A DNA stretch of 64,000 bases from Gemmatimonadota bacterium (GTDB lineage Bacteria; Gemmatimonadota; Gemmatimonadetes; Gemmatimonadales; Gemmatimonadaceae). Shown here piece by piece: positions 36,125 to 63,769 of the stretch; the first letter of the stretch is position 1, and the number at the start of each line of letters is the position of its first letter. The stretch lies in the NCBI GenBank assembly GCA_016714015.1, contig JADJNZ010000009.1, positions 56,321 to 120,320 on the forward strand, in the 5' to 3' direction. A program made the translations under genes and the position numbers. The notes beneath the pieces were generated by a model that saw only the letters and a program-made list of their open reading frames with translations, was not told the origin of the DNA and did not search any database.

Positions 36125-36452
36125 GGCCGGGAACGAGTGAACTGGCAACGGCTTCCCCGCAGGTGTCGCCCGCGCCGACCCGCCTGGCCCCGCTGAACTC
36201 GGCCGTCGTGTCTTCTCTTTGGGGGGTGCGCTCGATCAGATCTGTCTGGCACCGCGGCCGGTCGCGCTCCGGTGATCTCGATTGCTCGCGCCAGCACGGG
36301 TGCCACGCGAGGTAGCGGTCCGCACGCCGGCTGGGCAAGACGTTCGCCTCTCGCAATGCCGCCGCATAACGCGGGTTGGTGACCGATGGCCGGCTATTGA
36401 TGGCGGCCGCTCCGCGGCCGCATTATTGGATCGGCCACGGCACAACCAAACG
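36119..36452 (+). other. Cassette 1, ORF-less (family A), 334 bp
   Basis: Bounded by core 36118 and attC1; no convincing gene; homologous to family C. Confidence 0.75.
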
Positions 36453-36458
36453 TTAGCT
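36364..36458 (+). repeat. attC1 (short class)
   Basis: R'' gcataac, R' gttagct. Confidence 0.95.
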
Positions 36459-36489
36459 CGCTGGAACTGACTTCGATCCAGGCAAGCAC

Positions 36490-36651
36490 ATGGAGAAGTT
36501 GCTGGTGATGCTTGTGTCGACCGTCGCGAGTGCCGCTGGCTGGTGGCTCGGGGCGCACGTCGGGATCATGACGGCCTTCATCACGAGCATCATCGCGCTG
36601 GGACTCGGCGTGTGGGGCGGTCGGCAGCTCGCGCGCCGATGGATGCTGTAG
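36490..36651 (+). CDS. Cassette 2: 53-aa two-TM membrane protein
   Basis: MEKLLVMLVSTVASAAGWWLGAHVGIMTAFITSIIALGLGVWGGRQLARRWML (below ORF-track cutoff). Confidence 0.75.
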   Translation: MEKLLVMLVSTVASAAGWWLGAHVGIMTAFITSIIALGLGVWGGRQLARRWML

Positions 36652-36671
36652 CCGACGCCTCGCGGCCCACG

Positions 36672-36804
36672 AGCTAACGGCAGTTGGTGCAGATGGCCGG
36701 CTAGGGTGGCGGGTTGGCGGCCCCGGCCTCATCGTACTTCAGGGTCGGCCGTGGCCGCCAACCCGCAATTATTGGATCGGCCACAGCACAACTAGACGTT
36801 AGCG
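36672..36804 (+). repeat. attC2
   Basis: agctaac...gttagcg. Confidence 0.95.
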
Positions 36805-36834
36805 AGACCGGAACACCTCTCGCGAGACACGAAG

Positions 36835-37239
36835 ATGCCCTTCGAGAAGATGTGGAATACGAGGCTGGTGAAAGGCGTTCCGGTGCGCCGTCGGTTCATC
36901 CTCGCTGCGTTGAGCGCTGCGGTGGTTGCTCTCGTGTGGTCGCCAATCGAACGCATGTCCGATGCGAGGAGGGCTCAGTCTATCGCGTCGTTCGAGAGCG
37001 TCTTGCCGCCGAGCGACCCTGAAAACGGATTCGTCTGCTTGTTGCGGTACCGGGAGCCACTCTACGTCGTGGACGGCCAAGAACTGTCCCCTGCCGCGGC
37101 GAATCGCATCGTCCCGGAGGCGATCGAGTCGATCGAACTCATGGACAACAAGGCGGCAGGTGCAGTCTACGGCATCCGTGCTCGTGTTGGCGTAGTGTTG
37201 ATCGCCACGCGAGCCAAGCGTCCGCCCGCGGCTCGCTAA
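36835..37239 (+). CDS. Cassette 3: membrane-anchored stand-alone TonB-receptor plug-like domain
   Basis: PLYVVDG..IESIELM..AAGAVYGIRARVGVVLIAT; stop inside R''. Confidence 0.7.
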   Translation: MPFEKMWNTRLVKGVPVRRRFILAALSAAVVALVWSPIERMSDARRAQSIASFESVLPPSDPENGFVCLLRYREPLYVVDGQELSPAAANRIVPEAIESIELMDNKAAGAVYGIRARVGVVLIATRAKRPPAAR

Positions 37240-37367
37240 CGGCGGTTGGTGACCGATGGCCGGCTAGGGTAGCGGGGCGGCGGCCCCGCCTTATCGTCAC
37301 GGGAGGGTCGGCGTGGCCGCCGCCCCGCAATTATTTGAACGGCCACGGCACAACCTTGACGTTATGC
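37234..37367 (+). repeat. attC3
   Basis: cgctaac...gttatgc. Confidence 0.95.
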
Positions 37368-37900
37368 CGACGATCACACATCTCAGTCGTGCGCGTGAAG
37401 GTCTGCTGGCCGCCTGGAAGTGTTGCCTCTCGTTCACGAAGAGCGAGTGGCGGCTTGAGGACTATCCGCTGCGTCTGCGCCAGCAGTCGACGGGCAGCGG
37501 AGGCACCGTCCCCCCGTGGTCGGCTCAGATTATTGGCTACTGGCAGTTGTGCGGGCTTGGCGAGTCGCGTGAAGCCGCTATCGCCGACCTAACCTCGAGG
37601 CTTGAGCTCGTGCGTTCGCGCGGACCGCTTCCTCGCCCCGGGACCAAGGTTCCGGTGGTATTCGCTGCGTCGAGCGAGCTGGAACGCCACGGTGAGTTCG
37701 CCTTTGAGTTTGTGGAGCGAGTCACGGGCATTCGTCCCTTATTCATGTCGGACGAGTCATCGCTCGCTGACTTTGCGGACGGTGAGGGATTGGAGGAGTT
37801 CCGCGCAAAGATCTTCGCCGAGTACGGTCGAGAGGTACGGCTGGAGCTTGATGGGCCCCTCTGGCGGGTGCTTGACGCGGTCGGAGCTGGCGCGGCATAA
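37364..37900 (+). CDS. Cassette 4: hypothetical protein with a HicB-like segment
   Basis: WSAQIIGYWQLCGLGESREAAIADL; ATG directly after core GTT. Confidence 0.7.
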   Translation: MPTITHLSRAREGLLAAWKCCLSFTKSEWRLEDYPLRLRQQSTGSGGTVPPWSAQIIGYWQLCGLGESREAAIADLTSRLELVRSRGPLPRPGTKVPVVFAASSELERHGEFAFEFVERVTGIRPLFMSDESSLADFADGEGLEEFRAKIFAEYGREVRLELDGPLWRVLDAVGAGAA

Positions 37901-38027
37901 CGGCAGTTGGTGCTGATGGCCGGCTGGGGTAGCGGGTTGGCGGCCCCGGCCTCATCGTACCGCAGGGTCGGCCGTGGCCGCCAACCCGCATCTATGGAAT
38001 CGGCCACAGCACAACGTGACGTTAGGC
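37895..38027 (+). repeat. attC4
   Basis: gcataac...gttaggc. Confidence 0.95.
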
Positions 38028-38044
38028 GGAGCTCTGTGAGGTCG

Positions 38045-38788
38045 ATGACGCGGACAATCATGTTGCTCGCTGCGACGTCGCTTCTCGCGGCGTGTGCGCC
38101 CGAGATACCTCCAAGTTGGGAGCGCGGAAACTGTCTCGCTTCGACGCCAGAGGCTACACAACTGGCGCTCCTTCGTGCGCGGGCGGACTCGTCGCCGATC
38201 TTCCTGCTCGGCTCGACCGACGCCGCGCGGCTCCGCGGTGAACTCGATCGCCGCGCACGCGCGCTCGAGCAAGACACGATCTGGGTCCGTAGTGCCGACA
38301 CGGTACTGACCCAGCCGCCGCTCAGCGATGCGTGGTGGCATGTCGTTCAGACAGTACATCCCGAGCTCGAGCCGATGGACTCGTCGCTGGCGCGCGCGTA
38401 CGTCCAAGGTCGTTTCGCGCTTGATTCGACGCACACGGCGTTCCTCCTTCGTGTGCCCGGCGTTGAAGTCGCGTTCCGCGAGGAACTCTGGATTCACAGC
38501 GCCGTCGGACAGTGTTTCCTATTGCCCGAGCTCCTGGCACTCGCGTGGGGTGATGGTGGAGAGACCAGCGAGCTGGAGACATGGATTGTTGACTTGGACG
38601 CAAATGGAGTGCGCGAGCTTGTGCAGCGCAGCTATTCGTCGATTACGACGGAGAATCCGGACGACACGCTGGCCGTGACGGAGATATCTGATTCAGTCGC
38701 CGTACTCCGATGGAGAGTGCCGCGGTTCGTGCAGGACTCGAGCTTTGACCTCAACCGGATTCCGTGGGCGCGAATCCCCAGACCGTGA
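38045..38788 (+). CDS. Cassette 5: lipoprotein
   Basis: MTRTIMLLAATSLLAAC lipobox. Confidence 0.8.
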   Translation: MTRTIMLLAATSLLAACAPEIPPSWERGNCLASTPEATQLALLRARADSSPIFLLGSTDAARLRGELDRRARALEQDTIWVRSADTVLTQPPLSDAWWHVVQTVHPELEPMDSSLARAYVQGRFALDSTHTAFLLRVPGVEVAFREELWIHSAVGQCFLLPELLALAWGDGGETSELETWIVDLDANGVRELVQRSYSSITTENPDDTLAVTEISDSVAVLRWRVPRFVQDSSFDLNRIPWARIPRP

Positions 38789-38811
38789 TGGCGAGTGTCG
38801 AACCGCGGCCC

Positions 38812-38945
38812 GCCTAACGGCGGTTGGTGACCGATGGCCGGCTAGGGTAGCGGGTTGGCGGCCACGCTTTATCGTTCCTGAAGGACCGGCGTGGCCGCCA
38901 ACCCGCATTTCATTTGAACGGCCACGGCACAACCTGACGTTAGCC
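38812..38945 (+). repeat. attC5
   Basis: gcctaac...gttagcc. Confidence 0.95.
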
Positions 38946-38953
38946 CGACCTAC

Positions 38954-39409
38954 ATGAGATCGCGTCGAAGACACACTCCAACTCACCCACTGCTGCCTGA
39001 GGAAGCGTCCACGGCGCTCAATGTCGTGACGTTCCTCTTCGCATCGAGCGGAGGACTGTCGTTGCTGTTTCTCGCCGTCGGCCTCGTCGGCAAACTGCTC
39101 GGCTGGAGCGTGATGGCCGATGTCGCCATCAACCCACTCATCGTCCTCATCCGCCTAGCAGTCGCCGCTGGTTACCTCTGGACCGCGTGGCTGCTTTCCG
39201 AACGGCGCGAACTCGGCGGCTTCCTCGGCCTCGGGTTCCTCGGGCTTTCGATCGCGCCCCCCTTGCTGCTCGGTAGCAGGGTAGGCAGCAGCAACCTGTT
39301 GATTCCGGTCCTCGGCGCCATCGGCCTCGCGCTGTCCTGGTCGTACTTGAACGACGAGGATGAGGCAGCGCGAGACGCGTCTGCGAAGATCGGTCCGCGG
39401 GCGGGCTAA
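38954..39409 (+). CDS. Cassette 6: 4-TM membrane protein
   Basis: Hydrophobic helices; stop inside R''. Confidence 0.8.
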   Translation: MRSRRRHTPTHPLLPEEASTALNVVTFLFASSGGLSLLFLAVGLVGKLLGWSVMADVAINPLIVLIRLAVAAGYLWTAWLLSERRELGGFLGLGFLGLSIAPPLLLGSRVGSSNLLIPVLGAIGLALSWSYLNDEDEAARDASAKIGPRAG

Positions 39410-39537
39410 CGACGGTTGGTGACCGATGGCCGGCTAGGGTAGCGGGTGGGCGGCCCCGCCCTCATCGTACTTCAGGGTCGGGCGTGGCCGCCCACCCGCA
39501 ATTATTGGAACGGCCACGGCACAACCTGACGTTAGGC
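39404..39537 (+). repeat. attC6
   Basis: ggctaac...gttaggc. Confidence 0.95.
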
Positions 39538-39563
39538 GGACGGAGGAGGCTCTGGAGCGCTAC

Positions 39564-40214
39564 ATGCAGGCGGCGTTCATCGCCATGGCCGTGGCCACGA
39601 TCTCTAATGCCGCGAACGCTCAGCGCGCGCGCGAATGCGTCGCAGTGCCAGCGTCGCGCACTGCATCGCTCGACTCGGCGCAGCAAGCTCTCGGGTTCCG
39701 CCTCTACTGGCCAGCAATCGAGGCCTGCGGTCCCGAGAGAATTGTCGCTGCACTCTGGACGCCCGAGCGTGATCGCGACGGTGACTTCGGTTCGCGCATT
39801 GCATTGCTTCGACCCACGGACGGGCGCTCCTTCGTCGCAGTCTCGTTCTCGCGAGGCTTCCTTGAGTCGAGCCTGCCACGCGTGCGCGCGTTCGAGGCCC
39901 GGGGCCGAGTGCTCGCACTCGCGGACCTTGGTGACGAAGGAGGGAGTTGGGGTATCGAGGCATTCGAGGTGCTCCGCGACAGCCTTCTTGCGCTCGGCCG
40001 CCTGGATGTTGGCAAATCCTCGCGTGACGATGAGAATGACGGATCGGCCTTCAGCCACTTGGCCGTCGCGCTGAGTGCGGGAGAATGGCAGGTGAGCTTC
40101 GACACCGTTGTCGTGCTCGAACCGAACCGAGATTCTCGCTCCGTCATCGAGGCAAGTCCGCGCAGGCCGGCCCGGTTCCGCGCGCACGGCGGCACGTGGC
40201 GCCGTCTTCCGTGA
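39564..40214 (+). CDS. Cassette 7: secreted hypothetical protein
   Basis: Signal peptide MQAAFIAMAVATISNAANA; fills cassette. Confidence 0.75.
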   Translation: MQAAFIAMAVATISNAANAQRARECVAVPASRTASLDSAQQALGFRLYWPAIEACGPERIVAALWTPERDRDGDFGSRIALLRPTDGRSFVAVSFSRGFLESSLPRVRAFEARGRVLALADLGDEGGSWGIEAFEVLRDSLLALGRLDVGKSSRDDENDGSAFSHLAVALSAGEWQVSFDTVVVLEPNRDSRSVIEASPRRPARFRAHGGTWRRLP

Positions 40215-40220
40215 GCCGCC

Positions 40221-40353
40221 GCCTAACGGCAGTTGGTGCTGATGGCCGGCTGGGGTAGCGGGTTGGCGGCCCCGGCCTCATCGTACTTCAGGGTCGGCCG
40301 GGGCCGCCAACCCGCATTAATGGAATCGGCCACAGCACAACTTGACGTTATGT
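40221..40353 (+). repeat. attC7
   Basis: gcctaac...gttatgt. Confidence 0.95.
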
Positions 40354-40378
40354 TGACGACAGACCTCGTCGCGGCAGA

Positions 40379-40909
40379 ATGAGTCGCTCGCCCATCATCC
40401 GATACGCCAACGACTGGCTGCATTCACGAACGGCCTTGCTCGGGTACGCGGGCGCGTTCGCCGCCGAGGCTCGCGCGCTCTCGGGGGTCGTGCGCATTGC
40501 CCTGCTCGGATCGATCCTGACCGAGAAGCCGGATCCGAAGGACATTGATCTGCTCGTCATCGTGAGCGAGTCGTGCGACCTCGAACGCCTCGCCATGATG
40601 GCCCGCCGCGTGAAGGGTCGGGCCCAGAGCCTTGGCCGTGGCGCGGACGTGTTCCTCGGCGCCGAGAACGGGACATACCTCGGGCGCGCGTGTTCGTGGC
40701 GCGATTGTCGGCCTGGCGTGCGCAAGGCATGCGACGCGAACCATTGCGGCCGACGGCCGTTCCTCCATGACGATCTGCAAACCATCACGCTGCCGACGGA
40801 GCTCGTTCGAGAGCCGCCGCTTGAGTTGTTTCCACATGTGCTCGCGCGGCGCGCTCTGCCCGCGGACGTAGCGAAGTGGCTCGCTGAGCTGGCCGGATCC
40901 GCAACATAA
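40379..40909 (+). CDS. Cassette 8: minimal nucleotidyltransferase-fold protein with a Cys-rich C-terminal segment
   Basis: IALLGSILTEKPDPKDIDLLV (GS..DxD), third Asp in ADVFL, C-x3-C..C-x4-C. Confidence 0.8.
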   Translation: MSRSPIIRYANDWLHSRTALLGYAGAFAAEARALSGVVRIALLGSILTEKPDPKDIDLLVIVSESCDLERLAMMARRVKGRAQSLGRGADVFLGAENGTYLGRACSWRDCRPGVRKACDANHCGRRPFLHDDLQTITLPTELVREPPLELFPHVLARRALPADVAKWLAELAGSAT

Positions 40910-41037
40910 CGGCAGTTGGTGCAGATGGCCGCGCTGGGGTAGCGGTTGGGCGGCCGCGCTTTATCGTACACTTCGGTACGGCGCGGCCGCCCAACCGCAT
41001 CTTATGGAATCGGCCACAGCACAACTTGACGTTAGGT
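40904..41037 (+). repeat. attC8
   Basis: acataac...gttaggt. Confidence 0.95.
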
Positions 41038-41105
41038 TGACCGGAATTGGCTCCGTCCGGATCACTTCACACCGCACCGTCGCCAGTTTGGAGGCTGAGT
41101 CGTCC

Positions 41106-41702
41106 ATGCCGAGTAGGACGCTGACGTACAGGTGTCTGGTTATCTCGCCGAGCGACGTGGACGAAGCGCGCGACGCCGTGTGTGACGTGTTGGGCAGATG
41201 GAATGCGTCTATCGGTGTCGCGCTCGACCTGCGCGTCGAAGCAGTTCGGTGGGAGACGCATTCCCGACCAGAACTCGGCGGACATCCGCAGTCACTCCTT
41301 GACAGCCAGGTTGTCGCCGGCGCTGACTTCGGAATCGCAGTCTTCGGTGCGCGGATTGGCACTCCCACGCTTGAATGGGAGTCTGGCTCGGTTCACGAGA
41401 TTGAGCGCCTCAGAGGTGGTGGCGCGGAAGTCATGGTCTACTTCGACGCGGGTGCGCTTCCGCGCGATGTAGATCTCGCTCAGCTCGAAGCACTGCGCGC
41501 GTTCCAAACTCGAGTGCGCACACAGGGAATCGTATTTGAGTACAGCTCTCTCTCTGATCTGCGCGAGCACATCATGCATCACGTCACCACGCTGCTCGGC
41601 AGTCGCGCAAACCACGAGCGCTTTAGCACCTTCATTGAGAAGCGCACGAGCGACCCGGACTCGCCACGCGAAGGGCAGATCTGGCTTCGCACCGATCTGT
41701 GA
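41106..41702 (+). CDS. Cassette 9: DUF4062/TIR-NDT-like Rossmann-fold protein
   Basis: LVISPSDVDEARDAV, VRWE, ADFGIAVFGARIGTPT, SGSVHEIE, VMVYF. Confidence 0.75.
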   Translation: MPSRTLTYRCLVISPSDVDEARDAVCDVLGRWNASIGVALDLRVEAVRWETHSRPELGGHPQSLLDSQVVAGADFGIAVFGARIGTPTLEWESGSVHEIERLRGGGAEVMVYFDAGALPRDVDLAQLEALRAFQTRVRTQGIVFEYSSLSDLREHIMHHVTTLLGSRANHERFSTFIEKRTSDPDSPREGQIWLRTDL

Positions 41703-41720
41703 CTGCGAGTTGCGCGAGCA

Positions 41721-41854
41721 ACCTAACGGAGGTTGGTGCAGACGGCCGCGGTAGCGAAGCAGGTGGGCGGCCACGCTCTGTCGTACCTTTCGGTAGCGCG
41801 TGGCCGCCCACCTGCATTTTATGAAAGCGGCCGCAGCACAACCAAACGTTAGCC
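41721..41854 (+). repeat. attC9
   Basis: acctaac...gttagcc. Confidence 0.95.
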
Positions 41855-41872
41855 ATTTGCAGAGGCCTTCGC

Positions 41873-42634
41873 GTGAGTGAAGTCGTCGGAGCTCCCGGTC
41901 GGTTCCTGACCGCGCAGTGGCGCGACTTGCTCATGCTCAACTTTGTCGTCGACCCGCGCCTGCTCGCATCGTACGTGCCTGCCGGCACAGAACTGGATCT
42001 GTGGCAGGGCGAGGCAATCGTGAGTGTCGTCGGATTCCGATTCGTCGACACGAGATTGCTGGGCCTGCCTCTCCCCGGGCACCGGAACTTTGAGGAGGTC
42101 AATCTCCGCTTCTATGTGCGCCGGCACGAGCCGACCGAAGTGCGCCGCGCCGTTGTCTTCATCCGCGAACTCGTTCCGCGACGGGCCATCGCGTGGGTCG
42201 CCAAAGCATGGTACAACGAGCCCTATCGCGCGCTGCGCATGAGGCACACGGTGCTCGCGCAGGGCGACGACCGCTCGGTCCGCTATGAGTGGCGTGAGGG
42301 CAGCGTCTGGACCGGGCTAGCGGCGCGCACCGTCGGCGCACCGTCCGCGCTTGTTCCAGGATCGGAGGCCGAGTTCATCACGGAACACTATTGGGGCTAC
42401 ACTCGCCAGCGCGACGGCGGCACCGTCGAGTACCAGGTGGCGCATCCATCGTGGCGCGTGTGGGCGGCGCATGACGCCACGCTCAGCGGCGACATCGCCG
42501 TGACCTACGGTGACGCGTTTGCCCCTGCGCTCGGTGGCGCGCCGCGGTCGGCGTTCGTGGCCGAGGGCTCGCCCATCACCGTGTATCGTCCCCGTCGCCT
42601 CTCGTTGGTCGAGCACGGCGCGCGCAATGGCTAA
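41873..42634 (+). CDS. Cassette 10: DUF2071/YqjF-family protein
   Basis: FLTAQWRDLLMLNF, FEEVNLRFYVR, EFITEHYWGY. Confidence 0.88.
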   Translation: MSEVVGAPGRFLTAQWRDLLMLNFVVDPRLLASYVPAGTELDLWQGEAIVSVVGFRFVDTRLLGLPLPGHRNFEEVNLRFYVRRHEPTEVRRAVVFIRELVPRRAIAWVAKAWYNEPYRALRMRHTVLAQGDDRSVRYEWREGSVWTGLAARTVGAPSALVPGSEAEFITEHYWGYTRQRDGGTVEYQVAHPSWRVWAAHDATLSGDIAVTYGDAFAPALGGAPRSAFVAEGSPITVYRPRRLSLVEHGARNG

Positions 42635-42762
42635 CGGAGGTTGGTGCAGTCGGCCGCGCTAGGGAAGCAGGTGGGCGGCCGCGCTTTGTCGTACCTTGAG
42701 GTACGGCGCGGCCGCCCACCTGCATCTTATGAAAGCGGCCGCAGCACAACCAAACGTTAGGG
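42629..42762 (+). repeat. attC10
   Basis: ggctaac...gttaggg. Confidence 0.95.
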
Positions 42763-42782
42763 CGACTTCCGCGAAGGAGAGA

Positions 42783-43853
42783 ATGGAATCCGCAGAGTCT
42801 CGAGACCAGATCTTGACTCGTCTCGTCCGATGGACGCTTCTTGGCATCGGCACACTACCGACGGCCTTATTTGCTCAGGTGGTCGTGCGCGTGACCGACC
42901 CGGCGAATCATGCAGTTTCCGCTGCAATCGTTGAGTTCTGGTCCGCGAACGAACGCGTCGCAACGCGCGTGACCGACTCCGACGGTCTCGCGCGGTTCGT
43001 CGCGGGCGAACGCGCCCGTTCGAACGCCGCGATCGTCCGCCGGATTGGATTCCTTCCCGGTCACCTGGTCCTAGGCAGCACCAGCGACACCGTGGTCGTG
43101 AGCATGGAGCCTCTATCGGGCAGCCTGCCTTCCGTTACGGTGCTCGCGGCCCGCCAGGCATGCCCGCAGACCGATAGCCCCGAAGCGCGGAAGCTGTGGC
43201 AAGAGATTGCCTCTCGATACGAGACTCCGTCGACTCAAGGGAGGAAGGCGAACGTCGAGGAACGCCGAGCAACTGTTGCGGAAGACCAAGTGGGAGCCGT
43301 CGGCATCGGTAACCCGAGAACCGGCTGGCGTTTCTATACTCACGGCGGGATGACCGGAGCGCGAGCCAGCTTCGCCCAACGAGGATACATCCAGCCGCTC
43401 ACGGGGACTCACTCTTACGACGACTTCGGCGCTTGGCGCTATCCTCCTCTCCACGCTGAGATGGCCGGACACTTCGTCGATGCGATCTTCGGCGAGGCAC
43501 ACACGCTGACCCTGAGTCGTGCTGGCTCCCGGAATATCGTATTGCGCTTCTGCGCGCGTGACCGGCGCCGTAACGGACTGGATGGTGTCATGCGCGTGGG
43601 CGAATCGGGCGGCCTCGCGGATGCTCGCTGGACCTACTGGAATCCTGCCCGCGACGGGGAGTCGGCCGGTGGTGAGGTTGTATTCACTCCGCTCGCGGAG
43701 TCGGGGCACGCCCCTCTGTTCTCGGCGAGCGGCTTATTCTGGCGACGCCTACCGTCGAAGCGCTATCTCCAGAGCTGGCAGGACTACTCCGCCTGGGAGC
43801 TTCTCGCGGACAGTGTAGGAACCAATAGCGCGAGCCGCCGGCCCGCGCCCTAA
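42783..43853 (+). CDS. Cassette 11: secreted protein with a carboxypeptidase-regulatory-like N-terminal domain
   Basis: VTDSDGLARF, VRRIGFLP, LPSVTV; AGGAG RBS. Confidence 0.75.
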   Translation: MESAESRDQILTRLVRWTLLGIGTLPTALFAQVVVRVTDPANHAVSAAIVEFWSANERVATRVTDSDGLARFVAGERARSNAAIVRRIGFLPGHLVLGSTSDTVVVSMEPLSGSLPSVTVLAARQACPQTDSPEARKLWQEIASRYETPSTQGRKANVEERRATVAEDQVGAVGIGNPRTGWRFYTHGGMTGARASFAQRGYIQPLTGTHSYDDFGAWRYPPLHAEMAGHFVDAIFGEAHTLTLSRAGSRNIVLRFCARDRRRNGLDGVMRVGESGGLADARWTYWNPARDGESAGGEVVFTPLAESGHAPLFSASGLFWRRLPSKRYLQSWQDYSAWELLADSVGTNSASRRPAP

Positions 43854-43981
43854 CGGCAGTTGGTGACCGACGGCCGTCTAGGGTAGCAGGTGGGCGGCCG
43901 CGCCTTGTCGTACCTTTCGGTACGGCGCGGCCGCCCACCTGCATTTTATGAAAGCGGCCGCGGCACAACTTGACGTTATGC
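43848..43981 (+). repeat. attC11
   Basis: ccctaac...gttatgc. Confidence 0.95.
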
Positions 43982-44631
43982 CTACGGAGACGAGAATGGC
44001 GCGAGCGGATAGTGGGCGCATTCTCCGCGCGAGTGCGGCCTGTGTGCTCGCTTCCTGCATCGCGTCGGGCGCTGGCGCGCAAGCGAACACACGATCCGTG
44101 TCGGCCCCCGACACTGCGGCCTTCTACACGTGGTGGGTTCGAGCGCACTCGACGGACCTCAGCGCAGAGGCTGATACCGTCGGGTTCAGACTCCCGACTG
44201 GTGTGCGTCGCATCGGCCTCGCTCTCGCGACGATTCGCGCGAGTACTGGAGTGCGTCGTCGGCCCCCGCTGAAGGACCTCGTAGGGAAGTGGCGTGTCGG
44301 AATCCTCGCGTCCGTCGACGCTGAGGACCTCGTGGTCTGGGTTCCCGATGACAGCCTTGAGCTCAATCGTAACGACGTGGCGTGTCGGCCGCGGCGCAGT
44401 TGGCTCAGCGTCGTGCCTTCGGGCCAGTGGTTGAGCGTCGACCTGGATCCGAGTTGCGACGAGACGTATGGAAGCGACGAGGTGGACTTCACGCTCTATT
44501 GGCTTGGGATGGATCGGTGGCCGCACGTGCAGATTACGACAAATGGGCCTGCCTGCGTGCCGTCCCGCCTCTATCGCTTCGATCCCCGGGAACAGCGATA
44601 TGTCGAGGCGCGCGAGGCGTGCGCCGGATAG
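43978..44631 (+). CDS. Cassette 12: secreted hypothetical protein
   Basis: Signal-like N-terminus ending AGAQA; fills cassette. Confidence 0.7.
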   Translation: MPTETRMARADSGRILRASAACVLASCIASGAGAQANTRSVSAPDTAAFYTWWVRAHSTDLSAEADTVGFRLPTGVRRIGLALATIRASTGVRRRPPLKDLVGKWRVGILASVDAEDLVVWVPDDSLELNRNDVACRPRRSWLSVVPSGQWLSVDLDPSCDETYGSDEVDFTLYWLGMDRWPHVQITTNGPACVPSRLYRFDPREQRYVEAREACAG

Positions 44632-44646
44632 TCTGGCGCGCCCGAG

Positions 44647-44780
44647 GCATAACGGCAGTTGGTGCAGACGGCCGCGCTGGGGTAGCGGTTGGGCGGCCGT
44701 GCTTTATCGTACCTGAAGGTACCGCACGGCCGCCCAACCGCATTTCATGAAAGCGGCCGCAGCACAACTTGACGTTATGC
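44647..44780 (+). repeat. attC12
   Basis: gcataac...gttatgc. Confidence 0.95.
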
Positions 44781-45301
44781 CTGCACTGACGAAGATCATG
44801 ACCCTATTTCAGCGTGCTTCGTTTGCTGTGGCCGTCAGCGCCGCCTGTCTGCCTTCGGGCGGTCAGGCGCAGGACGGCAGAAGTGGCCTATTGCTCCAGC
44901 CGCCCGCCAGCACAGCGCCCTTGCTCTGCCGTCGCGTCCCTCGCGATGATGCGATATCGCCGCGGGCGGCTCTCGTTCTTGAGTTTCGCTACGGAACGGA
45001 TACGTCGCTCTACGACCTCGGGCAGGGAATGTCGCTGAATACGCGCCGTATCACCGTTGCCTGGGACTCGACGGGCAGGCCCCTTCTAGCGAGGTCGTCG
45101 TTCACACGCGACGTCGCGGTTGCGGCGCGCCTTGGTTTCGAGGTGCGCGCGACCGCGGACGGCGCGCTCAGTGGCGAGTGGACTGATCGCGACGCGAACG
45201 GAAAGCCGGCCGTGGTACCTCTCAGCCACGAGGAGTCGAACCGTGTGGAGGCGCTCATGCGGTGGCTCTGGTCACGTCGGTGCGAAGGTCGTACCCCGTG
45301 A
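44777..45301 (+). CDS. Cassette 13: secreted hypothetical protein
   Basis: Signal-like ASFAVAVSAACLPSGGQA. Confidence 0.7.
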   Translation: MPALTKIMTLFQRASFAVAVSAACLPSGGQAQDGRSGLLLQPPASTAPLLCRRVPRDDAISPRAALVLEFRYGTDTSLYDLGQGMSLNTRRITVAWDSTGRPLLARSSFTRDVAVAARLGFEVRATADGALSGEWTDRDANGKPAVVPLSHEESNRVEALMRWLWSRRCEGRTP

Positions 45302-45302
45302 G

Positions 45303-45436
45303 GCATAACGGAGGTTGGTGCAGACGGCCGCGGTAGCGAAGCAGGTGGGCGGCCGCGCTCTGTCGTACCTTTCGGTACAGCGCGGCCGCCCACCTGCATC
45401 TTATGAAAGCGGCCGCAGCACAACCAAACGTTAGGC
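45303..45436 (+). repeat. attC13
   Basis: gcataac...gttaggc. Confidence 0.95.
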
Positions 45437-45438
45437 GA

Positions 45439-53132: not shown

Positions 53133-53261
53133 CGGCAGTTGGTGACCGACGGCCGCGTTACTGAAGCAGGTGGGCGGCCGTGCTCTTTTGTACCTTTCGG
53201 TATCGCACGGCCGCCCACCTGCATTCTATTGAAGCGGCCGCGGCACAACTTGACGTTATGC
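53127..53261 (+). repeat. attC24
   Basis: gcataac...gttatgc. Confidence 0.95.
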
Positions 53262-53560
53262 GGCGCCCCACCCGTCGCGATCGAGTTCGAAGCTCGGCCG
53301 AGATCGTTTGGGGTGAACGGCAACAACGATGGACGGCAGCACCTCACCCGTGGGACTTGACCCGGTCCGCCCCTCGTCGCTCGTGCCGTCGGGACCTCTG
53401 CACGTTGGCCCCAGGTAGGGCGGATGGTTCGCCGCGCGATTCGTCCGCCCCCTGGCACCGGGCGGCGGCCGCGCATAACGACGCTTGGTGCCGATGGCCG
53501 ACTATTGATGGCGGCCGCTCCGCGGCCGCATTATTCAATCGGCCACAGCACAAGCCAACG
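53256..53560 (+). other. Cassette 25, ORF-less (family B2), 305 bp
   Basis: Same length as and colinear with cassette 23. Confidence 0.75.
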
Positions 53561-53566
53561 TTATGC
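53473..53566 (+). repeat. attC25 (short class)
   Basis: gcataac...gttatgc. Confidence 0.95.
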
Positions 53567-53588
53567 CGACCTCTGCAAGGAAAGTCTC

Positions 53589-53858
53589 ATGGAGCTCGTG
53601 ATCCTCCCACAGGGCCTGTTCCTCTTCTACGGTGCCCTCGTCCTCAGCTGCGGCGTCGGACTCGGCGCTGTGCTCGGTCGAAATCTGCTCCGCCGTCGGC
53701 ACGCTCCGATTCCTGAGCCGCCAGACCTCCTCCAGCAGCGCGTCGCGCTCCTCGAGCAAGAACTCGACGCGACGGTCGCACAGTTGGCGCGGCTCACCGA
53801 GGAACGCGAGTTCATGCGCGAGTTGGAACGGCCGCGCCCGAAAGGCGTCGCGGCATAA
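53589..53858 (+). CDS. Cassette 26: single-TM plus coiled-coil protein
   Basis: AAGGA RBS; TM then LQQRVALLEQELDATVAQLARL. Confidence 0.8.
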   Translation: MELVILPQGLFLFYGALVLSCGVGLGAVLGRNLLRRRHAPIPEPPDLLQQRVALLEQELDATVAQLARLTEEREFMRELERPRPKGVAA

Positions 53859-53986
53859 CGACGCTTGCTGCTGATGGTCGCGATGCGGATGGGTTTGGCG
53901 GGGCCTCCGTGATGACCTGGGTTGGTTGCGGAGGCCCCGCCAAACCCTTTTTATATGAGCGTCCACAGCAGAAGCAAACGTTAGGC
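53853..53986 (+). repeat. attC26 (divergent sequence)
   Basis: gcataac...gttaggc; own 19-bp inner stem. Confidence 0.9.
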
Positions 53987-54007
53987 GCACGGAACTGAGG
54001 TCTGCCT

Positions 54008-54463
54008 GTGTCGATATCGATACACGTCGCGTTGCAGGCCGAGCTGCGTCGAATCGGCGACACGTCGTCCCTGACAGCGATGGGCTCAAGCGGGCGCCTG
54101 GGCAAAGCTCCGACCGCAGCGCAGATTCTCGTTCGTCTTCAGGAACTGCCGGCCGGAGCGGACGCTGCGGCACTCGTTGCGGCTGTCTATCAACCGAGTG
54201 ATACCGAGGTCTCGGATGTTCGCGCCGCCTTGCGGCGTACGTTCGAGCGCTGCGAGTTGAGTGTCGAAGAGCGCGTGCTGGTCGAGATCGACCGCATCGC
54301 CCCGCGCCTGCCCGAAGGAGTCGGAGTGAGCTTCCCAAGCGGCCCCCGCTTGGCAGCGATTTTGGAGATGTTACGAACATTACCGAGTGGTGCAGGCGCG
54401 GAGGTTCTCGGCGCCGCCCTCGCCGCTGATCTCGATCCGCCGGCGCCTAACGATGGTTGGTGA
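54008..54463 (+). CDS. Cassette 27: hypothetical protein with an internal repeat
   Basis: ILVRLQELPAGADAAAL vs ILEMLRTLPSGAGAEVL; stops in L''. Confidence 0.7.
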   Translation: MSISIHVALQAELRRIGDTSSLTAMGSSGRLGKAPTAAQILVRLQELPAGADAAALVAAVYQPSDTEVSDVRAALRRTFERCELSVEERVLVEIDRIAPRLPEGVGVSFPSGPRLAAILEMLRTLPSGAGAEVLGAALAADLDPPAPNDGW

Positions 54464-54577
54464 CCGATGGCCGGCTAGGGTAGCGGGTTGGCGGCCACGC
54501 CTTATTGTGAAGGACGGGTCGGCGTGGCCGCCAACCCGCATCTATTTGATCGGCCACGGCACAACCTGACGTTAGAC
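54445..54577 (+). repeat. attC27
   Basis: gcctaac...gttagac. Confidence 0.95.
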
Positions 54578-54602
54578 CGACGACTGAGGATTTGCGGCCC
54601 CT

Positions 54603-54995
54603 ATGTTTCAACAGCGACGCTTTCTCCTCCTGTTGACCTTCGTGGGATGTGTGAGCATCCCCAAGCGTGATGTGGCTCCCCCGGAGGAGGCCTTCGCCGA
54701 AGCCGCGCGGCTTCACCTCACGCACCTGCCAGCGTATCGATCGCTCGACGCGACGTTGCAGCCCGCTGCCGCCGCGACGATGCGAGATCTGCGTCGTCGG
54801 AACCAGCGCCCGGTGGAGTGGTTCGTGGACCTGGGACTCAGCGAGGACAGCCTACAGGTGGACGTGAACTTGTGGCACATGTCCGGACTTCGCGCGGACA
54901 CTCGCTTCATCCTAGGAAATCCGAGTGGCAGAGACCATAGCCTGCGGTACGATCGGCGCAGCGGCAAGGTCGCGATGATCGGGCTCTGGCAGTAA
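54603..54995 (+). CDS. Cassette 28: lipoprotein
   Basis: FLLLLTFVGC lipobox. Confidence 0.8.
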   Translation: MFQQRRFLLLLTFVGCVSIPKRDVAPPEEAFAEAARLHLTHLPAYRSLDATLQPAAAATMRDLRRRNQRPVEWFVDLGLSEDSLQVDVNLWHMSGLRADTRFILGNPSGRDHSLRYDRRSGKVAMIGLWQ

Positions 54996-55006
54996 GCGGC
55001 CGCGCG

Positions 55007-55140
55007 GTCTAACGGCAGTTGGTGACCGACGGCCGTCTAGGGGAGCAGGTGGGCGGCCGCGCCTTGTCGTACCTTTCGGTACGGCGCGGCCGCCCACCTG
55101 CATTTTAATAAAGCGGCCGCGGCACAACTTGACGTTAGGC
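55007..55140 (+). repeat. attC28
   Basis: gtctaac...gttaggc. Confidence 0.95.
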
Positions 55141-55146
55141 GGACAC

Positions 55147-55674
55147 GTGCGCGTTCGTGGATTCTTGACTCTCGCGCTCTTGAGCGCCTGCACCGGAGCC
55201 TCAGGCGGGGAGCGAAACGCTCCGCCGCCGCGACTCGCCCGCGCAAGCCTTCGCGCGGAAGTCCTTGGCTGCTTCGAGCTGCGGGAAGTCAACGGCAGTC
55301 CGCTCGACTCGGCGCGAGCGTTCACCGCCGCTGCCGTACTCCGCCTGCGGCCCGACACGGTACCCGACAATCCGAGCGCGCTGATGGGGTACCATCCGCG
55401 GCGGTCAGTTTCGCTGCTGTCGCCTCGATTCAATCCTGAGTGGGATGAGAAGGCGACGGCCTGGGGATGGACCGTATGGATGGCGGACTCCCTGACAGAC
55501 TCCGTCCGCATCGACTTCAGCACTGGCTTCAGTGGTACGATGGTCGTGCTTGACCACCCGCCGGGGATGCAGACCGAACTTGATGGACGGATCGAGGAGC
55601 GTTGGGATGCAGGTCCCAGCCCTACGAGTCAGCGCCGTGTTCGCGCGGTCCGCCGAGATTGCCCGGTCCCGTGA
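55147..55674 (+). CDS. Cassette 29: lipoprotein
   Basis: FLTLALLSAC lipobox. Confidence 0.8.
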   Translation: MRVRGFLTLALLSACTGASGGERNAPPPRLARASLRAEVLGCFELREVNGSPLDSARAFTAAAVLRLRPDTVPDNPSALMGYHPRRSVSLLSPRFNPEWDEKATAWGWTVWMADSLTDSVRIDFSTGFSGTMVVLDHPPGMQTELDGRIEERWDAGPSPTSQRRVRAVRRDCPVP

Positions 55675-55682
55675 AGGGTGCC

Positions 55683-55815
55683 GCCTAACGACAGTTGGTG
55701 CTGATGGCCGGCTAGGGTAGCGGGTTGGCGGCCCCGGCCTCATCGTACCTCAGGGTCGGCCGTGGCCGCCAACCCGCATTTATTGAATCGGCCACAGCAC
55801 AACTCGACGTTAGCC
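55683..55815 (+). repeat. attC29
   Basis: gcctaac...gttagcc. Confidence 0.95.
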
Positions 55816-55846
55816 TGACGAGACAGAGGTCGGTCTCACTCCTAGA

Positions 55847-56179
55847 ATGTCGATCTCACCCGAATCCGCCGTTGCATACGGAACGAGGACCGTGAACTAT
55901 CCGGTCGTCGGAACCATGATCGCCCTTGGCGTTGGAGGCGTGGTATGGGCGGCACTCTCGTGGTCTCGACTGCCGCTCGCTATCTCCGTCTTCGCGCCGC
56001 TGCTAGCCTGGCCGGTTTGGTCCTGGCGCATCGCACGTTGGCGCGACTGGGTAGTCGACCACGGTCTTGAGCCGGATGACGTTCACGAGTTGGCCGTCCG
56101 AGCCGGGCTGCTCTGGCCGCGTGGGTCGGCGCTTGAGCGCACGGAGATGCGTCGCCGAAGTGGCCAGCGCGGGTGGTGA
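55847..56179 (+). CDS. Cassette 30: two-TM membrane protein
   Basis: GTRTVNYPV..TM..WSWRIARWRDW..GLLWPRGS. Confidence 0.8.
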   Translation: MSISPESAVAYGTRTVNYPVVGTMIALGVGGVVWAALSWSRLPLAISVFAPLLAWPVWSWRIARWRDWVVDHGLEPDDVHELAVRAGLLWPRGSALERTEMRRRSGQRGW

Positions 56180-60599: not shown

Positions 60600-60998
60600 G
60601 TGGCGACCCGGTTCCTTTCGCTCGCAGAAGTCCTCGATCTCTACAGCCGCGTGTTGGTCGCCGGCGGGGGCGCGTCTGCTATTCGCGATCTCGGCGCGCT
60701 GGAGTCCGCGCTCGCGCAGCCACGTGCGACGTTTGCCGACGAGGATCTCTATCCGTCGCTCGCCGAGAAGGCGTCCGCCCTTGGCTTCTCGCTCATCCTC
60801 AATCACCCGTTCGTCGACGGCAACAAGCGCATCGGCCACGCGGCGGTTGAAGTCTTTCTGGTGCTGAACGGCTTCGAGCTGTCGGCAGGGATTGATGACG
60901 CCGAACGGGTCATCCTCGGCGTTGCGGCGGGGACAATCAGTCGGGACGAGTTCACGACGTGGATCCGAGAATCTCTCGTCGCATTCCCGGCACCGTAG
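60600..60998 (+). CDS. doc: Cassette 38: death-on-curing (Fic-fold) toxin
   Basis: IRDLGALESALAQP, NHPFVDGNKRIG. Confidence 0.93.
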   Translation: MATRFLSLAEVLDLYSRVLVAGGGASAIRDLGALESALAQPRATFADEDLYPSLAEKASALGFSLILNHPFVDGNKRIGHAAVEVFLVLNGFELSAGIDDAERVILGVAAGTISRDEFTTWIRESLVAFPAP

Positions 60999-61396: not shown

Positions 61397-61530
61397 GGCT
61401 AACGGAGGTTGGTGCAGACGGCCGCGTTAGGGAAGCAGGTGGGCGGCCGTGCTCTTTTGTACCTTTCGGTATCGCACGGCCGCCCACCTGCATCTTATGG
61501 AAGCGGCCGCAGCACAACCAAACGTTATGC
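61397..61530 (+). repeat. attC39
   Basis: ggctaac...gttatgc. Confidence 0.95.
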
Positions 61531-61861
61531 GGGCGGGGGACAGCCAACTGGCGTCGGCGTCACCGCGTGGGAAGTACAGCCCGAGGCATCGACGCCGCTG
61601 AACGTCGGCGTCCTCAATCCCACCGCTTTGGGGAGCGCGCTCCGCCAGGATCAAGCGACGCCGCGGCTCGGAGGGCTTCGCCGGGCGTCCGCGCGCCCGC
61701 ATTGCGTACGAGGTGGTCGGTCCGGCGCGCGCGCGAGGGTGGGCGCGCGGGGGTGAGTACGGCGGGCCACCGCATAACGGCAGTTGGTGCAGATGGCCGC
61801 GCTATTGATGGCGGCGCGCTCCGCGGCCGCATTATTGAAGCGGCCACAGCACAACCACACG
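61525..61861 (+). other. Cassette 40, ORF-less (family C1)
   Basis: 337 bp; only a 24-codon 5' ORF. Confidence 0.8.
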
Positions 61862-61867
61862 TTATGC
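61772..61867 (+). repeat. attC40 (short class)
   Basis: gcataac...gttatgc. Confidence 0.95.
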
Positions 61868-62198
61868 GGGCGGGGGACAGCCAACTGGCGTCGGCGTCAC
61901 CGCGTGGGAAGTACAGCCCGAGGCATCGACGCCGCTGAACATGGGCGTCCTCAAGCCCACCGCTTTGGGGAGCGCGCTCCGCCAGGATCGAAGCGCCGCC
62001 GCGGCTCGGAGCCGCCTCGCCGGGCGTCCGCGCGCTGGCATTGCTTACGAGGTGGTCGGTCGGCGCGCGCGCGAGAGTGGGCGCGCGGGGGTGAGGACGG
62101 CGGGCCGCCGCATAACGGCAGTTGGTGCAGATGGCCGCGCTATTGATGGCGGCCGCTCCGCGGCCGCACTATTGGGGCGGCCACTGCACAACCAAACG
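61862..62198 (+). other. Cassette 41, ORF-less (family C2)
   Basis: 337 bp paralog. Confidence 0.8.
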
Positions 62199-62204
62199 TT
62201 AGCT
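62110..62204 (+). repeat. attC41 (short class)
   Basis: gcataac...gttagct. Confidence 0.95.
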
Positions 62205-62222
62205 GGACGGGAGCGGAGATCA

Positions 62223-62633
62223 GTGAAGCCGAATGCCGCCAGTTTGCGCGCGTTGTGCGAGTGCTACACGCCGATCGGCGTGATCTATCCGTGGAGACGC
62301 GCGCTCAAGCGCGCCGGTTACGCGCGGGTCCGATCACAGTTGGTGCCTGACTGGCTGGTGCCGGTGCTACGAGACAATCCGCAGCTGATCGAGGGATGGG
62401 TGCGCTACGTGGAGGACAAGCGAGGCGACTTCGGCTGGATCCTGCAGCAGCGAGCCGACCTGCGCTGGGTGGTCTGCTATCGCGCCGACTGCCAGTGGCC
62501 GGCCACGTACGAGGACGGCGCAATCGCGTGCGCGCAGTTCCTGGTCCGCGAGTTCGAGGTGCTGTACGGCAGGCCCCGTGGGAACGCAAACGGTGGCACT
62601 TTGCACCGGAGTCCGGGTGTGGCCGCCAGCTAA
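62223..62633 (+). CDS. Cassette 42: hypothetical protein
   Basis: GGAG RBS; stop inside R''. Confidence 0.7.
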   Translation: MKPNAASLRALCECYTPIGVIYPWRRALKRAGYARVRSQLVPDWLVPVLRDNPQLIEGWVRYVEDKRGDFGWILQQRADLRWVVCYRADCQWPATYEDGAIACAQFLVREFEVLYGRPRGNANGGTLHRSPGVAAS

Positions 62634-62761
62634 CGGCAGTTGGTGACCGACGGCCGTCTAGGGGAGCAGGTGGGCGGCCGTGCTCTTTTGTACCTTTCGG
62701 TATCGCACGGCCGCCCACCTGCATTTCATGAAAGCGGCCGCGGCACAACTTGACGTTATGC
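62628..62761 (+). repeat. attC42
   Basis: agctaac...gttatgc. Confidence 0.95.
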
Positions 62762-63091
62762 GGGCGGGGGACAGCCAACTGGCGTCGGCGTCACCGCGTG
62801 GGAAGTACAGCCCGAGGCATCGACGCCGCTGAACATGGGCGTCCTCAAGCCCAACGCTTTGGGGAGCGCGCTCCGCCAGGATCGAGCGCCGCCGCGGCTC
62901 GGAGCGCCTCGCCGGGCGTCCGCGCGCTGGCATTGCTTACGAGGTGGTCGGTCCGGCGCGCGCGCGAGAGTGGGCGCGCGGGGGTGAGGACGGCGGGCCG
63001 CCGCATAACGGCAGTTGGTGCAGATGGCCGCGCTATTGATGGCGGCCGCTCCGCGGCCGCATTATTGGGGCGGCCACTGCACAACCAAACG
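62756..63091 (+). other. Cassette 43, ORF-less (family C3)
   Basis: 336 bp paralog. Confidence 0.8.
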
Positions 63092-63097
63092 TTATGC
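63003..63097 (+). repeat. attC43 (short class)
   Basis: gcataac...gttatgc. Confidence 0.95.
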
Positions 63098-63427
63098 GGG
63101 CGGGGGACAGCCAACTGGCGTCGGCGTCACCGCGTGGGAAGTACAGCCCGAGGCATCGACGCCGCTGAACATGGGCGTCCTCAAGCCCACCGCTTTGGGG
63201 AGCGCGCTCCGCCAGGAGCGAGCGCCGTCGCGGATCGGAGCGCTTCGCCGGGCGTCCGCGCGCCGGCATTGCGTACGAGGTGGTCGGTCCGGCGCGCGCG
63301 CGCGGGTGGGCGCGCGGGGGTGAGGACGGCGGGCCGCCGCATAACGGCAGTTGGTGCAGATGGCCGCGCTATTGATGGCGGCCGCTCCGCGGCCGCATTA
63401 TTGGAGCGGCCACAGCACAACCAAACG
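63092..63427 (+). other. Cassette 44, ORF-less (family C4)
   Basis: 336 bp paralog. Confidence 0.8.
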
Positions 63428-63433
63428 TTATGC
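63339..63433 (+). repeat. attC44 (short class)
   Basis: gcataac...gttatgc. Confidence 0.95.
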
Positions 63434-63763
63434 GGGCGGGGGACAGCCAACTGGCGTCGGCGTCACCGCGTGGGAAGTACAGCCCGAGGCATCGACGCCG
63501 CTGAACGTGGGCGTCCTCAATCCCACAACTTTGGGGAGCGCGCTCCGCCAGGATCGAGTGCCGCCGCGGCGCGGAGCGCTTCGCCGGGCGTTCGCGCGCC
63601 GGCATTGCTTACGAGGGGGTCGGTCCGGCGCGCGCGCGAGGGTGGGCGCGCGGGGGTGAGGACGGCGGGCCGCCGCATAACGGCAGTTGGTGCAGATGGC
63701 CGCGCTATTGATGGCGGCCGCTCCGCGGCCGCATTATTGGAGCGGCCACAGCACAACCAAACG
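63428..63763 (+). other. Cassette 45, ORF-less (family C5)
   Basis: 336 bp paralog. Confidence 0.8.
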
Positions 63764-63769
63764 TTAGGG
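63675..63769 (+). repeat. attC45 (short class)
   Basis: gcataac...gttaggg. Confidence 0.95.

Follow-up and report, generated by a model that had tools for sequence, protein, structure and literature searches.

Integron cassettes that lack an open reading frame (ORF) can carry promoters. In Vibrio, most of the 29 gene-less cassettes tested promote transcription of the following cassette in the sense direction (Blanco et al., Nucleic Acids Research 2024; PMC11014356), and ORF-less cassettes of oral Treponema were shown experimentally to have promoter activity (Tansirichaiya et al., Scientific Reports 2019; PMC6557892). Here we examine a cassette array with eight ORF-less cassettes in a stretch of 64,000 nucleotides from a Gemmatimonadota bacterium of the family Gemmatimonadaceae (assembly GCA_016714015.1, contig JADJNZ010000009.1, positions 56,321 to 120,320), hereafter the window. 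An initial annotation of this DNA, which rightly pointed to promoter-carrying ORF-less cassettes in other integrons (PMC11014356, PMC6557892), had proposed that a dedicated short class of attC recombination sites marks the ORF-less cassettes and contains a promoter-like sequence, and that these cassettes have a separate origin. In our preferred reading, to which we give a probability of about 0.55, the short attC is an ordinary variant, its link to the ORF-less cassettes is due to descent and amplification, and the promoter-like match is incidental.

The attC sites of sedentary chromosomal integrons, such as the repeats of Vibrio cholerae, are alike in sequence within a host lineage, whatever the cassettes contain. 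Unlike the Vibrio cholerae repeats, the attC family described here comes in two lengths (~95 and ~134 nt) that differ in the terminal hairpin, and its ~95-nt class is further subtyped by loop sequence. The integrase gene intI of Treponema integrons is oriented the same way as the cassettes. A non-coding function of a cassette is exemplified by sRNA-Xcc1 of Xanthomonas, a small RNA located on an integron cassette; in contrast to it, the present cassettes show neither a conserved structure nor an RNA family match. In very large chromosomal integrons, the expression of cassettes far from the cassette promoter Pc has, to our knowledge, been studied experimentally in Vibrio and Treponema only.

The superintegrons of Vibrionaceae (PMC11014356) resemble the present locus in that small gene-less cassettes are scattered among promoterless gene cassettes of a large sedentary chromosomal integron, and as in the Vibrio and Treponema type, the ORF-less cassettes here contain no protein-coding gene. 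Unlike in Vibrio, the host is a member of the Gemmatimonadota with 72% G+C content (GC), and intI is co-directional with the cassettes. Furthermore, the candidate promoter lies wholly inside a shared attC variant and not in the cassette body, and the cassettes appear to form a superfamily with a conserved core. The promoters of the Treponema cassettes were mapped to the cassette bodies and tested with Escherichia coli reporters (PMC6557892), and there is no sequence similarity to the present cassettes.

The attC sites were re-derived by anchor scanning of the window, which independently recovered the two discrete length classes of the initial annotation. There are 45 sites within 36364-63769, nine of them short (94-96 bp; numbers 1, 17, 23, 25, 40, 41, 43, 44 and 45) and 36 long (133-136 bp), with no intermediate lengths. 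The long sites are located as follows.

36672-62761, + strand: span of the 36 long attC sites (133-136 bp), organized into R'', L'', GGCCG stem, AT-rich loop, L' and R' as in the short class

All nine short sites start with NNNTAAC and finish with GTTRNNN, and so do the 36 long ones, as is characteristic of the inverse core R'' (RYYYAAC) and the core R' (GTTRRRY). In all 45 cassettes, the opening 6 nt are the reverse complement of the R'' box belonging to that cassette, and the cassette boundaries are therefore exact. When folded as bottom-strand DNA, four short attCs gave energies of -28.5 to -34.7 kcal/mol (z -5.0 to -6.2) with bulged L-stem bases, and long attCs gave -46 to -50 kcal/mol (z -8 to -9). 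The predicted architecture is common to both: an R stem, a bulged L stem and a GGCCG/CGGCC stem are followed by a large internal loop and, beyond it, a terminal stem. In the alignment of short and long sites, the flanks (R'', L'' and L'/R') and the AT-rich right arm of the loop are shared; this arm reads ATTATT in the short class and in a few long sites (e.g. numbers 2, 3 and 6), and most of the others have TTTTATG or (T/C)CTATG. The terminal stem is 8 bp long in the short class (GCGGCCGC-TCC-GCGGCCGC) versus ~20 bp in the long class, and the left arm of the loop is CTATTGATG versus CTAGGGTAG. The complete motif CTATTGATG-GCGGCCGC-TCC-GCGGCCGC-A(T/C/A)TATT is present in 9/9 short sites.

For comparison we used related loci and contigs from other genomes or metagenomes, numbered L001-L051. 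Short and long attCs co-occur across Gemmatimonadota arrays, and some arrays contain alternative or intermediate attCs of ~95 nt, for example CTATTG-TAGCGGCCGC (L019) and GGTAGCGAAGCGGCGGC (L023, L033 and L051). In L051, the attC of a HigBA cassette (~95 nt) lacks both hexamers of the promoter-like element, and further such attCs end other ORF cassettes. With R'', L'', the GGCCG/CGGCC stem, the loop arm and L'/R' common to both classes, and with the two co-occurring, a separate origin of the short class does not hold. By alignment and predicted fold, the short attC retains all elements relevant to recombination, extrahelical bases included, and is a length variant within the resident attC family and presumably an ordinary functional recombination site.

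The ORF-less cassettes are numbers 1, 23, 25, 40, 41, 43, 44 and 45, each 305-337 bp long. Our cassette table agrees with the earlier count in that all eight have a short attC and that eight of the nine short attCs cap an ORF-less cassette, attC17 being the exception. A top-strand ORF is present in all 36 cassettes with a long attC. The cassettes with a short attC are the following.

36119-36452, + strand: cassette 1, family A1, first in the array, body GC 0.70, short attC1 at 36364-36458
48594-49134, + strand: cassette 17, with an ORF of 136 amino acids at 48625-49035 and short attC17 at 49046-49140, which reads CAATAT at the -10 position
52541-52845, + strand: cassette 23, family B, short attC23 at 52758-52851, degraded core GAACAGCAACCACGAGGGAC at ~52592-52625
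53256-53560, + strand: cassette 25, family B, short attC25 at 53473-53566, core TTTGGGGTGAACGGCAACAACGATGGACGGCAGC at ~53307-53340
61525-62198, + strand: cassettes 40 and 41, family A45, 337 bp each, body GC 0.74-0.75, attC40 at 61772-61867 and attC41 at 62110-62204
62756-63763, + strand: cassettes 43-45, family A45, 336 bp each, in tandem, attCs at 63003-63097, 63339-63433 and 63675-63769

None of the eight ORF-less cassettes has an ORF with a coding-like GC distribution over codon positions (the profile is flat), and their candidate frames have no Pfam match. The substitutions among A45 copies fall 13/11/8 on the three codon positions, without three-base periodicity, and indels are present. 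Hidden small proteins were rejected on these grounds; in addition, the ATG of the conserved core described below opens ORFs that are inconsistent in length and sequence. The ORF of cassette 17 matches nothing in Pfam or NCBIfam.

The eight ORF-less cassettes cannot be counted as independent, and three sequence families account for all of them: A45 with five members (cassettes 40, 41, 43, 44 and 45; 93.5-98.5% identical), B with two (cassettes 23 and 25; 93%) and A1 with one (cassette 1), the last being a distant relative of A45. At the family level, 3/4 of the short-attC group versus 0/35 of the long-attC group are non-coding (Fisher p = 4/9139, or 3/703 with A1 and A45 merged). Copies of A45 are found in L022 and L036 behind other neighbours (94-99.7% identity), positions 738-1042 of L037 are 91% identical to cassette 25 of family B, and A1 has relatives in L010 (76% identity) and L016 (92% over 66 nt). 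All three families thus appear to be mobile, as each occurs in a different array context elsewhere (L022 and L036 for A45, L037 for B, L010 for A1). Their bodies (36119-36363, 52541-52757 and 61525-63674) have a GC of 70-76%, close to the 72% of the chromosome, and gene cassettes have 58-67%.

The short attC was then sought in other arrays, among one-genome-per-species contigs and metagenome contigs of the Joint Genome Institute (JGI), with a pattern in which the L'' box and the palindrome were fixed and both hexamers were free. The pattern matched at 15 loci in genomes and at 28 in metagenomes. The named genome bins are mostly Gemmatimonadota; the few others are short contigs, which we suspect to be mis-binned. 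ORFs with a recognizable domain lie upstream of the short attC in many of these loci: MerR (L001 and L031), HTH_37 (L002), SnoaL_4 (L005), GIY-YIG (L018), DUF3224 (L026) and CarboxypepD_reg (L033). The short attC likewise follows a HicAB pair in L024 and the ORF of a small membrane protein in L021. Conversely, a related non-coding cassette of L014 (763-1059), which contains CTCTTGGGGTGAAC, has a long attC, and so does the non-coding first cassette after attI in L047, which contains CTGGCAACGGCT and TTTTGGGGGG. Contrary to the initial annotation, the short class is therefore not dedicated to ORF-less cassettes, since in related arrays it is also common at the end of cassettes that encode proteins. 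A crude census of clusters gave 22 coding versus 15 non-coding with a short attC and 46 versus 6 with a long one; after manual curation, ~7 of ~31 short-attC families and ~2 of ~52 long-attC families were non-coding (~25% versus ~4%).

The promoter-like element inside the short attC can indeed be read on the top strand.

63372-63401, + strand: TTGATG-N18-CATTAT, matching the consensus at 8/12 positions, A2 and T6 of the -10 hexamer among them
36397-36426, 52790-52819, 53505-53534, 63036-63065 and 63708-63737, + strand: identical copies of TTGATG-N18-CATTAT
52815-52843 (attC23) and 53530-53558 (attC25), - strand: TTGGCT-17-AATAAT, matching at 9/12 positions, the AT-rich loop read in reverse

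The element is exact in 6/9 short sites. The remaining three depart from it: attC17 has CAATAT, attC41 has CACTAT, and in attC40 a 1-nt insertion in the palindrome extends the spacer to 19 nt. With its 8/12 score, the element falls below the threshold of our promoter scan (9/12) and was not called. The bottom strand of the other short attCs reads, by inspection, TTGGTT-16-AATAAT (8/12). The putative -10 hexamer falls in the AT-rich loop arm that is present in all 45 attCs, so that TTGATG alone is specific to the short class; the spacer of 18 nt is GC-palindromic, and there is no TG extension. Across 52 distinct short attCs from other arrays, ~40 of which have the TTGATG/CATTAT hexamers, the whole site is ~90% conserved and the hexamers are broken about as often as neighbouring loop positions; no conservation of the hexamers above that of the surrounding attC was seen in this set. 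The Vibrio and Treponema precedents make promoter activity plausible, but the promoter match is weak and non-specific, and it is doubtful that TTGATG-N18-CATTAT would fire as a promoter in the host.

Other promoter-like combinations were seen in the array. At the L'/R' junction, CAACTTGACGTTA forms TTGACG (5/6 of a -35 hexamer) in many attCs, among them those at 40353-40380 and 43970-43997 and ~20 others. At these two positions a -10-like hexamer follows in the next cassette 16 nt after TTGACG, and the resulting match of 9/12 exceeds that of TTGATG-N18-CATTAT.

The bodies of the non-coding cassettes contain conserved sequences of their own. A core of ~35 nt, YTTNGGGGAACGGCAAC-N2-4-CGATGKAC(AGCGC), is the only alignable part among family B, two cassettes each of L004 and L029, and one each of L012 and L013. 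Its position is constant, 55-90 nt into the cassette, and the BLAST E-values are as low as 5e-7.

53307-53340 and 52592-52625, + strand: copies of the ~35-nt core in cassettes 25 and 23 of the window
L004 ~3950-3990 and ~5640-5680, L029 ~255-300 and ~845-890, L012 ~113-150, L013 ~110-150, strand on which the attC reads 5' to 3': copies of the core at other loci

Within families, the core is conserved no more than its flanks, and cassette 23 carries four core changes. In A45, the first 79 nt of the body (e.g. 63428-63506) have one variable site among seven copies, versus 29 in the next 168 nt. A1 has GTGAACTGGCAACGGC and CTTTGGGG in common with other non-coding families, and the words CTGGCAACGGCT and TTTGGGG are common to A1, the first cassette of L047 and the L014 cassette, the last two of which have a long attC. 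From these similarities, the ORF-less cassettes appear to belong to a mobile, non-coding superfamily in which a linear 5' module is conserved.

RNAalifold gave no evidence of a conserved RNA structure in the B superfamily (-3.7 kcal/mol with a covariation term of -0.15) and no covariation support in the A family (covariation term +0.22), and a search of the window array and eight loci against Rfam at E <= 1 returned no meaningful match. Three other explanations of the bodies were rejected. They are not decayed attC hairpins, as they fold no better than shuffled sequences (z -0.3 to +1.0). The core was compared by eye with the consensus sequences for sigma-70, extracytoplasmic function (ECF) and sigma-54 promoters and for a LexA site; it does not match sigma-70, and its spacing and half-sites fit none of the others. 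Homology to the chromosomal intergenic repeats of the window is confined to one shared 13-nt word, GAACGGCAACGGC, at a chance-level BLAST E-value. These repeats (14007-14122, 14326-14372, 24388-24440 and 24691-24737) consist of a 53-bp tandem unit (GAACGGCAACGGCTTTCACCACAGAGGGCACAGAG...) with inverted partners.

RNA data were available as Logan contigs of metatranscriptomes, which contain neither strand nor read ends and cannot locate start sites. In four rRNA-depleted sludge metatranscriptomes of one study, which includes runs X28, X31, X33 and X34, contigs of depth 8-12 cover the A45 body (window 62708-63768), where the depth is inflated by the five copies in the array. They also reach back over the 3' half of the long attC that lies upstream and continue through the short attC into another cassette downstream. 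A45 is thereby shown to occur in RNA libraries, with read-through from the upstream side. The only other body covered within 36001-56000 and 62700-64000 is that of cassette 14 (45621-46310; depth 3-6). A contig of run X28 ends at ~63405, near the predicted start, but this end lies in sequence common to all attCs, and hence it was taken as an assembly break and not as a transcript end.

Folded as top-strand RNA, the central region of a long attC reaches ~-51 kcal/mol versus ~-20 kcal/mol for a short one (e.g. 48466-48599 versus 63339-63433), and long attCs might, by this model, impede read-through more than short ones do. A role of the long attC as an intrinsic terminator was rejected: its AT-rich tract is enclosed by further pairing and thus leaves no free U-tail.

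How do these findings bear on the origin of the association? In the preferred reading, a few small GC-rich non-coding families (A45, A1, B and their relatives elsewhere) would mostly have inherited a short attC. Being mobile, they would have been re-inserted repeatedly, giving rise to the five A45 copies, three of them in tandem, and the promoter-like appearance would arise since the class-specific TTGATG happens to sit 18 nt upstream of the AT-rich loop. The association of ORF-less cassettes with short attCs in the array is real, and it is neither exclusive nor evidence for a separate origin. Several observations weigh against the preferred reading. The non-coding enrichment among short attCs persists at the family level, in the window (p ~4e-4) as well as across the wider sample, although the frequencies in that sample are biased because the compared arrays were chosen for having a short attC; shared descent explains the enrichment, yet it does not exclude a functional link. 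Matches of 8/12 are rare, with six in 68 kb of chromosomal strand and 12 in the array outside the short attCs, and finding one inside a 95-bp element is not trivial because such matches are rare in GC-rich DNA. Nearly all of the 52 distinct short attCs retain A2 and T6 of the -10 hexamer, and variation is mostly at hexamer position 3. The sole host promoter reference that was found also resembles the attC element.

32903-32942: probable tRNA-Ile promoter TTGACC-N17-TTTATT, followed by tRNA-Ile at 32943-33017, the only tRNA gene in the window

Judging from this sequence, the -35 boxes of the host are probably canonical and its -10 boxes AT-rich. Lastly, the Vibrio study places the start site of one cassette, F2, inside its attC, and reports that in-silico scores fail to predict activity (PMC11014356).

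The reading proposed in the initial annotation is that the short attC acts as an outward sigma-70 promoter and that the ORF-less cassettes are shuffleable promoters which, far inside the array, restart transcription of whichever cassette follows. The recurrence of the hexamers in and outside the window, their nearly invariant A2 and T6, the rarity of such matches in the genome and the likeness to the tRNA-Ile promoter argue for it, as do the sense-oriented cassette that follows every short attC in the window and the promoter activity of the Vibrio and Treponema cassettes (PMC11014356, PMC6557892). However, the match reaches 8/12 only, with a palindromic spacer, no TG extension and no call by the scan, its -10 lies in the loop arm of all 45 attCs, the opposite strand matches at least as well, and the hexamers are conserved no more than the rest of the attC. 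The short attC is not a property of promoter cassettes, because it also ends many ordinary gene cassettes. Three tandem promoters in cassettes 43-45 would be redundant, and the metatranscriptome contigs over the A45 body and the upstream long attC fit read-through and not initiation at the short attC only. We therefore regard this reading as unlikely. A broader version, in which a dedicated regulatory superfamily combines the 5' module with a short attC whose loop has been turned into an outward promoter, and so reactivates silent cassettes behind stable long-attC hairpins, appears quite improbable.

Possible, if on the doubtful side, is that the functional part is the conserved 5' module (the 79 nt of A45 or the 35-nt core of the B superfamily), as a site for protein binding, a promoter for an alternative sigma factor or a linear RNA signal acting on transcription or processing of the array, and that the short attC is incidental. 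This would account for a core that is the sole alignable segment across genomes and stays at a fixed distance from the cassette start, for the nearly invariant 5' end of A45, for motif-bearing non-coding cassettes with long attCs (L014 and L047), for a body GC of 0.70-0.76 that is near the chromosomal 0.72 and unlike the 0.58-0.67 of gene cassettes, and for A45 being one of the two bodies represented in the four metatranscriptomes. It is at odds with the lack of covarying structure, the fold z-scores near 0, the absence of an Rfam match, the misfit of the core, by eye, to sigma-70, sigma-54 and ECF promoters, and the conservation of the core within families, which is no higher than that of its flanks and shows four changes in cassette 23. 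The decay of the core in cassette 23, together with the lack of an ORF, structure or family match, the multiple copies and the tandem amplification, would suit functionless cassettes that are decayed or selfish and persist and multiply by means of an efficient attC. This we consider improbable, as several genomes have the modules in common while the rest of the body has diverged, related non-coding cassettes come first after attI in two species (the window and L047), and the GC-rich composition is unlike that of decayed gene cassettes. By analogy with Vibrio and Treponema there is about an even chance that the non-coding cassettes act in cis on transcription of the array. In that case, the active part would at least as probably be the conserved 5' modules of the bodies as the attC. 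The conserved 5' module is a more interesting lead than the promoter reading.

The array belongs to a sedentary chromosomal integron of a Gemmatimonadaceae bacterium with at least 45 cassettes, as follows from the presence of an integrase gene, an attI site, a long homogeneous attC array and a conserved gene neighbourhood.

34904-35932, + strand: intI, integron integrase (TIGR02249, E 5.6e-122, 407 bits versus a cutoff of 265)
36092-36124, + strand: attI core, GGACAGGTCAAGCCAATACAC/GTTATGC, with the crossover GTT at 36118-36120

Cassette 1, whose R'' box is GCATAA, begins with the reverse complement TTATGC, and this places the attI crossover. The first 34 kb of the window have the chromosomal GC of 70-77%, and the GC is ~65% from ~36 kb, where the dense direct-repeat family begins. 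IntI homologues are 61-89% identical; those with a named source come from Gemmatimonadota or Gemmatimonadaceae, and matches from Minicystis are more distant. The gene order BipA/TypA-like GTPase, PPK2, peptidase S9, esterase, TspO and intI is also found in L044, L046 and L047, and AGGTCAAnCCAATnCACGTT follows intI in three related contigs as well (L044, L045 and L047). In the contigs with visible array sequence (the window, L044, L047 and L051), intI has the same orientation as the cassettes. Six contigs with an IntI homologue end between 17 nt and ~4 kb after intI, and most related contigs stop within ~1.3 kb, as the attC repeats probably broke short-read assembly; only L047, with one cassette, and L051, with ~4 kb, were informative. 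Exact copies of IntI and of the proteins of cassettes 36 and 42, sought in order to follow the array past position 64000, were not on record. Words of the window are also present in sequencing runs of activated sludge and wastewater.

A TTAGACAG-type word occurs twice near the integrase gene, at 35950-35975 just 3' of the intI stop codon and at 36092-36117 beside attI; in L044 (~10985-11005) it is a perfect palindrome, ATTAGACAGACCTGTCTAAT. These repeats could be operators or accessory IntI-binding repeats. Between intI and attI, L047 contains ~0.9 kb of degenerate tandem repeats (11006 to ~11900) with a unit of ~30 bp (CTCGCAGGCGYCTGACAGTYC...), which are absent from the window.

Other cassettes of the array are duplicated as well. 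Cassettes 15 (47207-47841) and 21 (51256-51890) carry the same ORF of 164 amino acids, and two-cassette junctions are repeated at 89-92% identity (47081-47380 versus 51130-51429, and 52433-52732 versus 53148-53447). Therefore, internal duplication of the array extends beyond the A45 copies. A stop-free frame of 390 amino acids runs across the tandem A45 cassettes (62750-63922, + strand). It is a spurious ORF, with no Pfam match and flat codon-position GC, and exists because the 336-bp units are in frame and stop-free; a gene caller could mistake it for a repeat protein. A Fic/Doc gene was found in cassette 38 (60600-60998) and HigBA in L051 (13900-14511), and inspection suggested a HicAB-like pair in L024 (1371-1942) and a likely two-gene toxin-antitoxin pair in L023 (417-1029). 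As predicted from these sequences, cassettes of the toxin-antitoxin type are frequent in these arrays.

In summary, the locus documents a large integron of Gemmatimonadota with a co-directional intI and two attC lengths in one family. It also calls for caution, as cassette duplication and shared descent can inflate associations within an array. The superfamily of non-coding cassettes with conserved cores offers concrete constructs for testing. If the attC variant does carry a promoter, any cassette gaining such an attC would become a mobile expression signal, and this would be a new coupling of recombination and expression.

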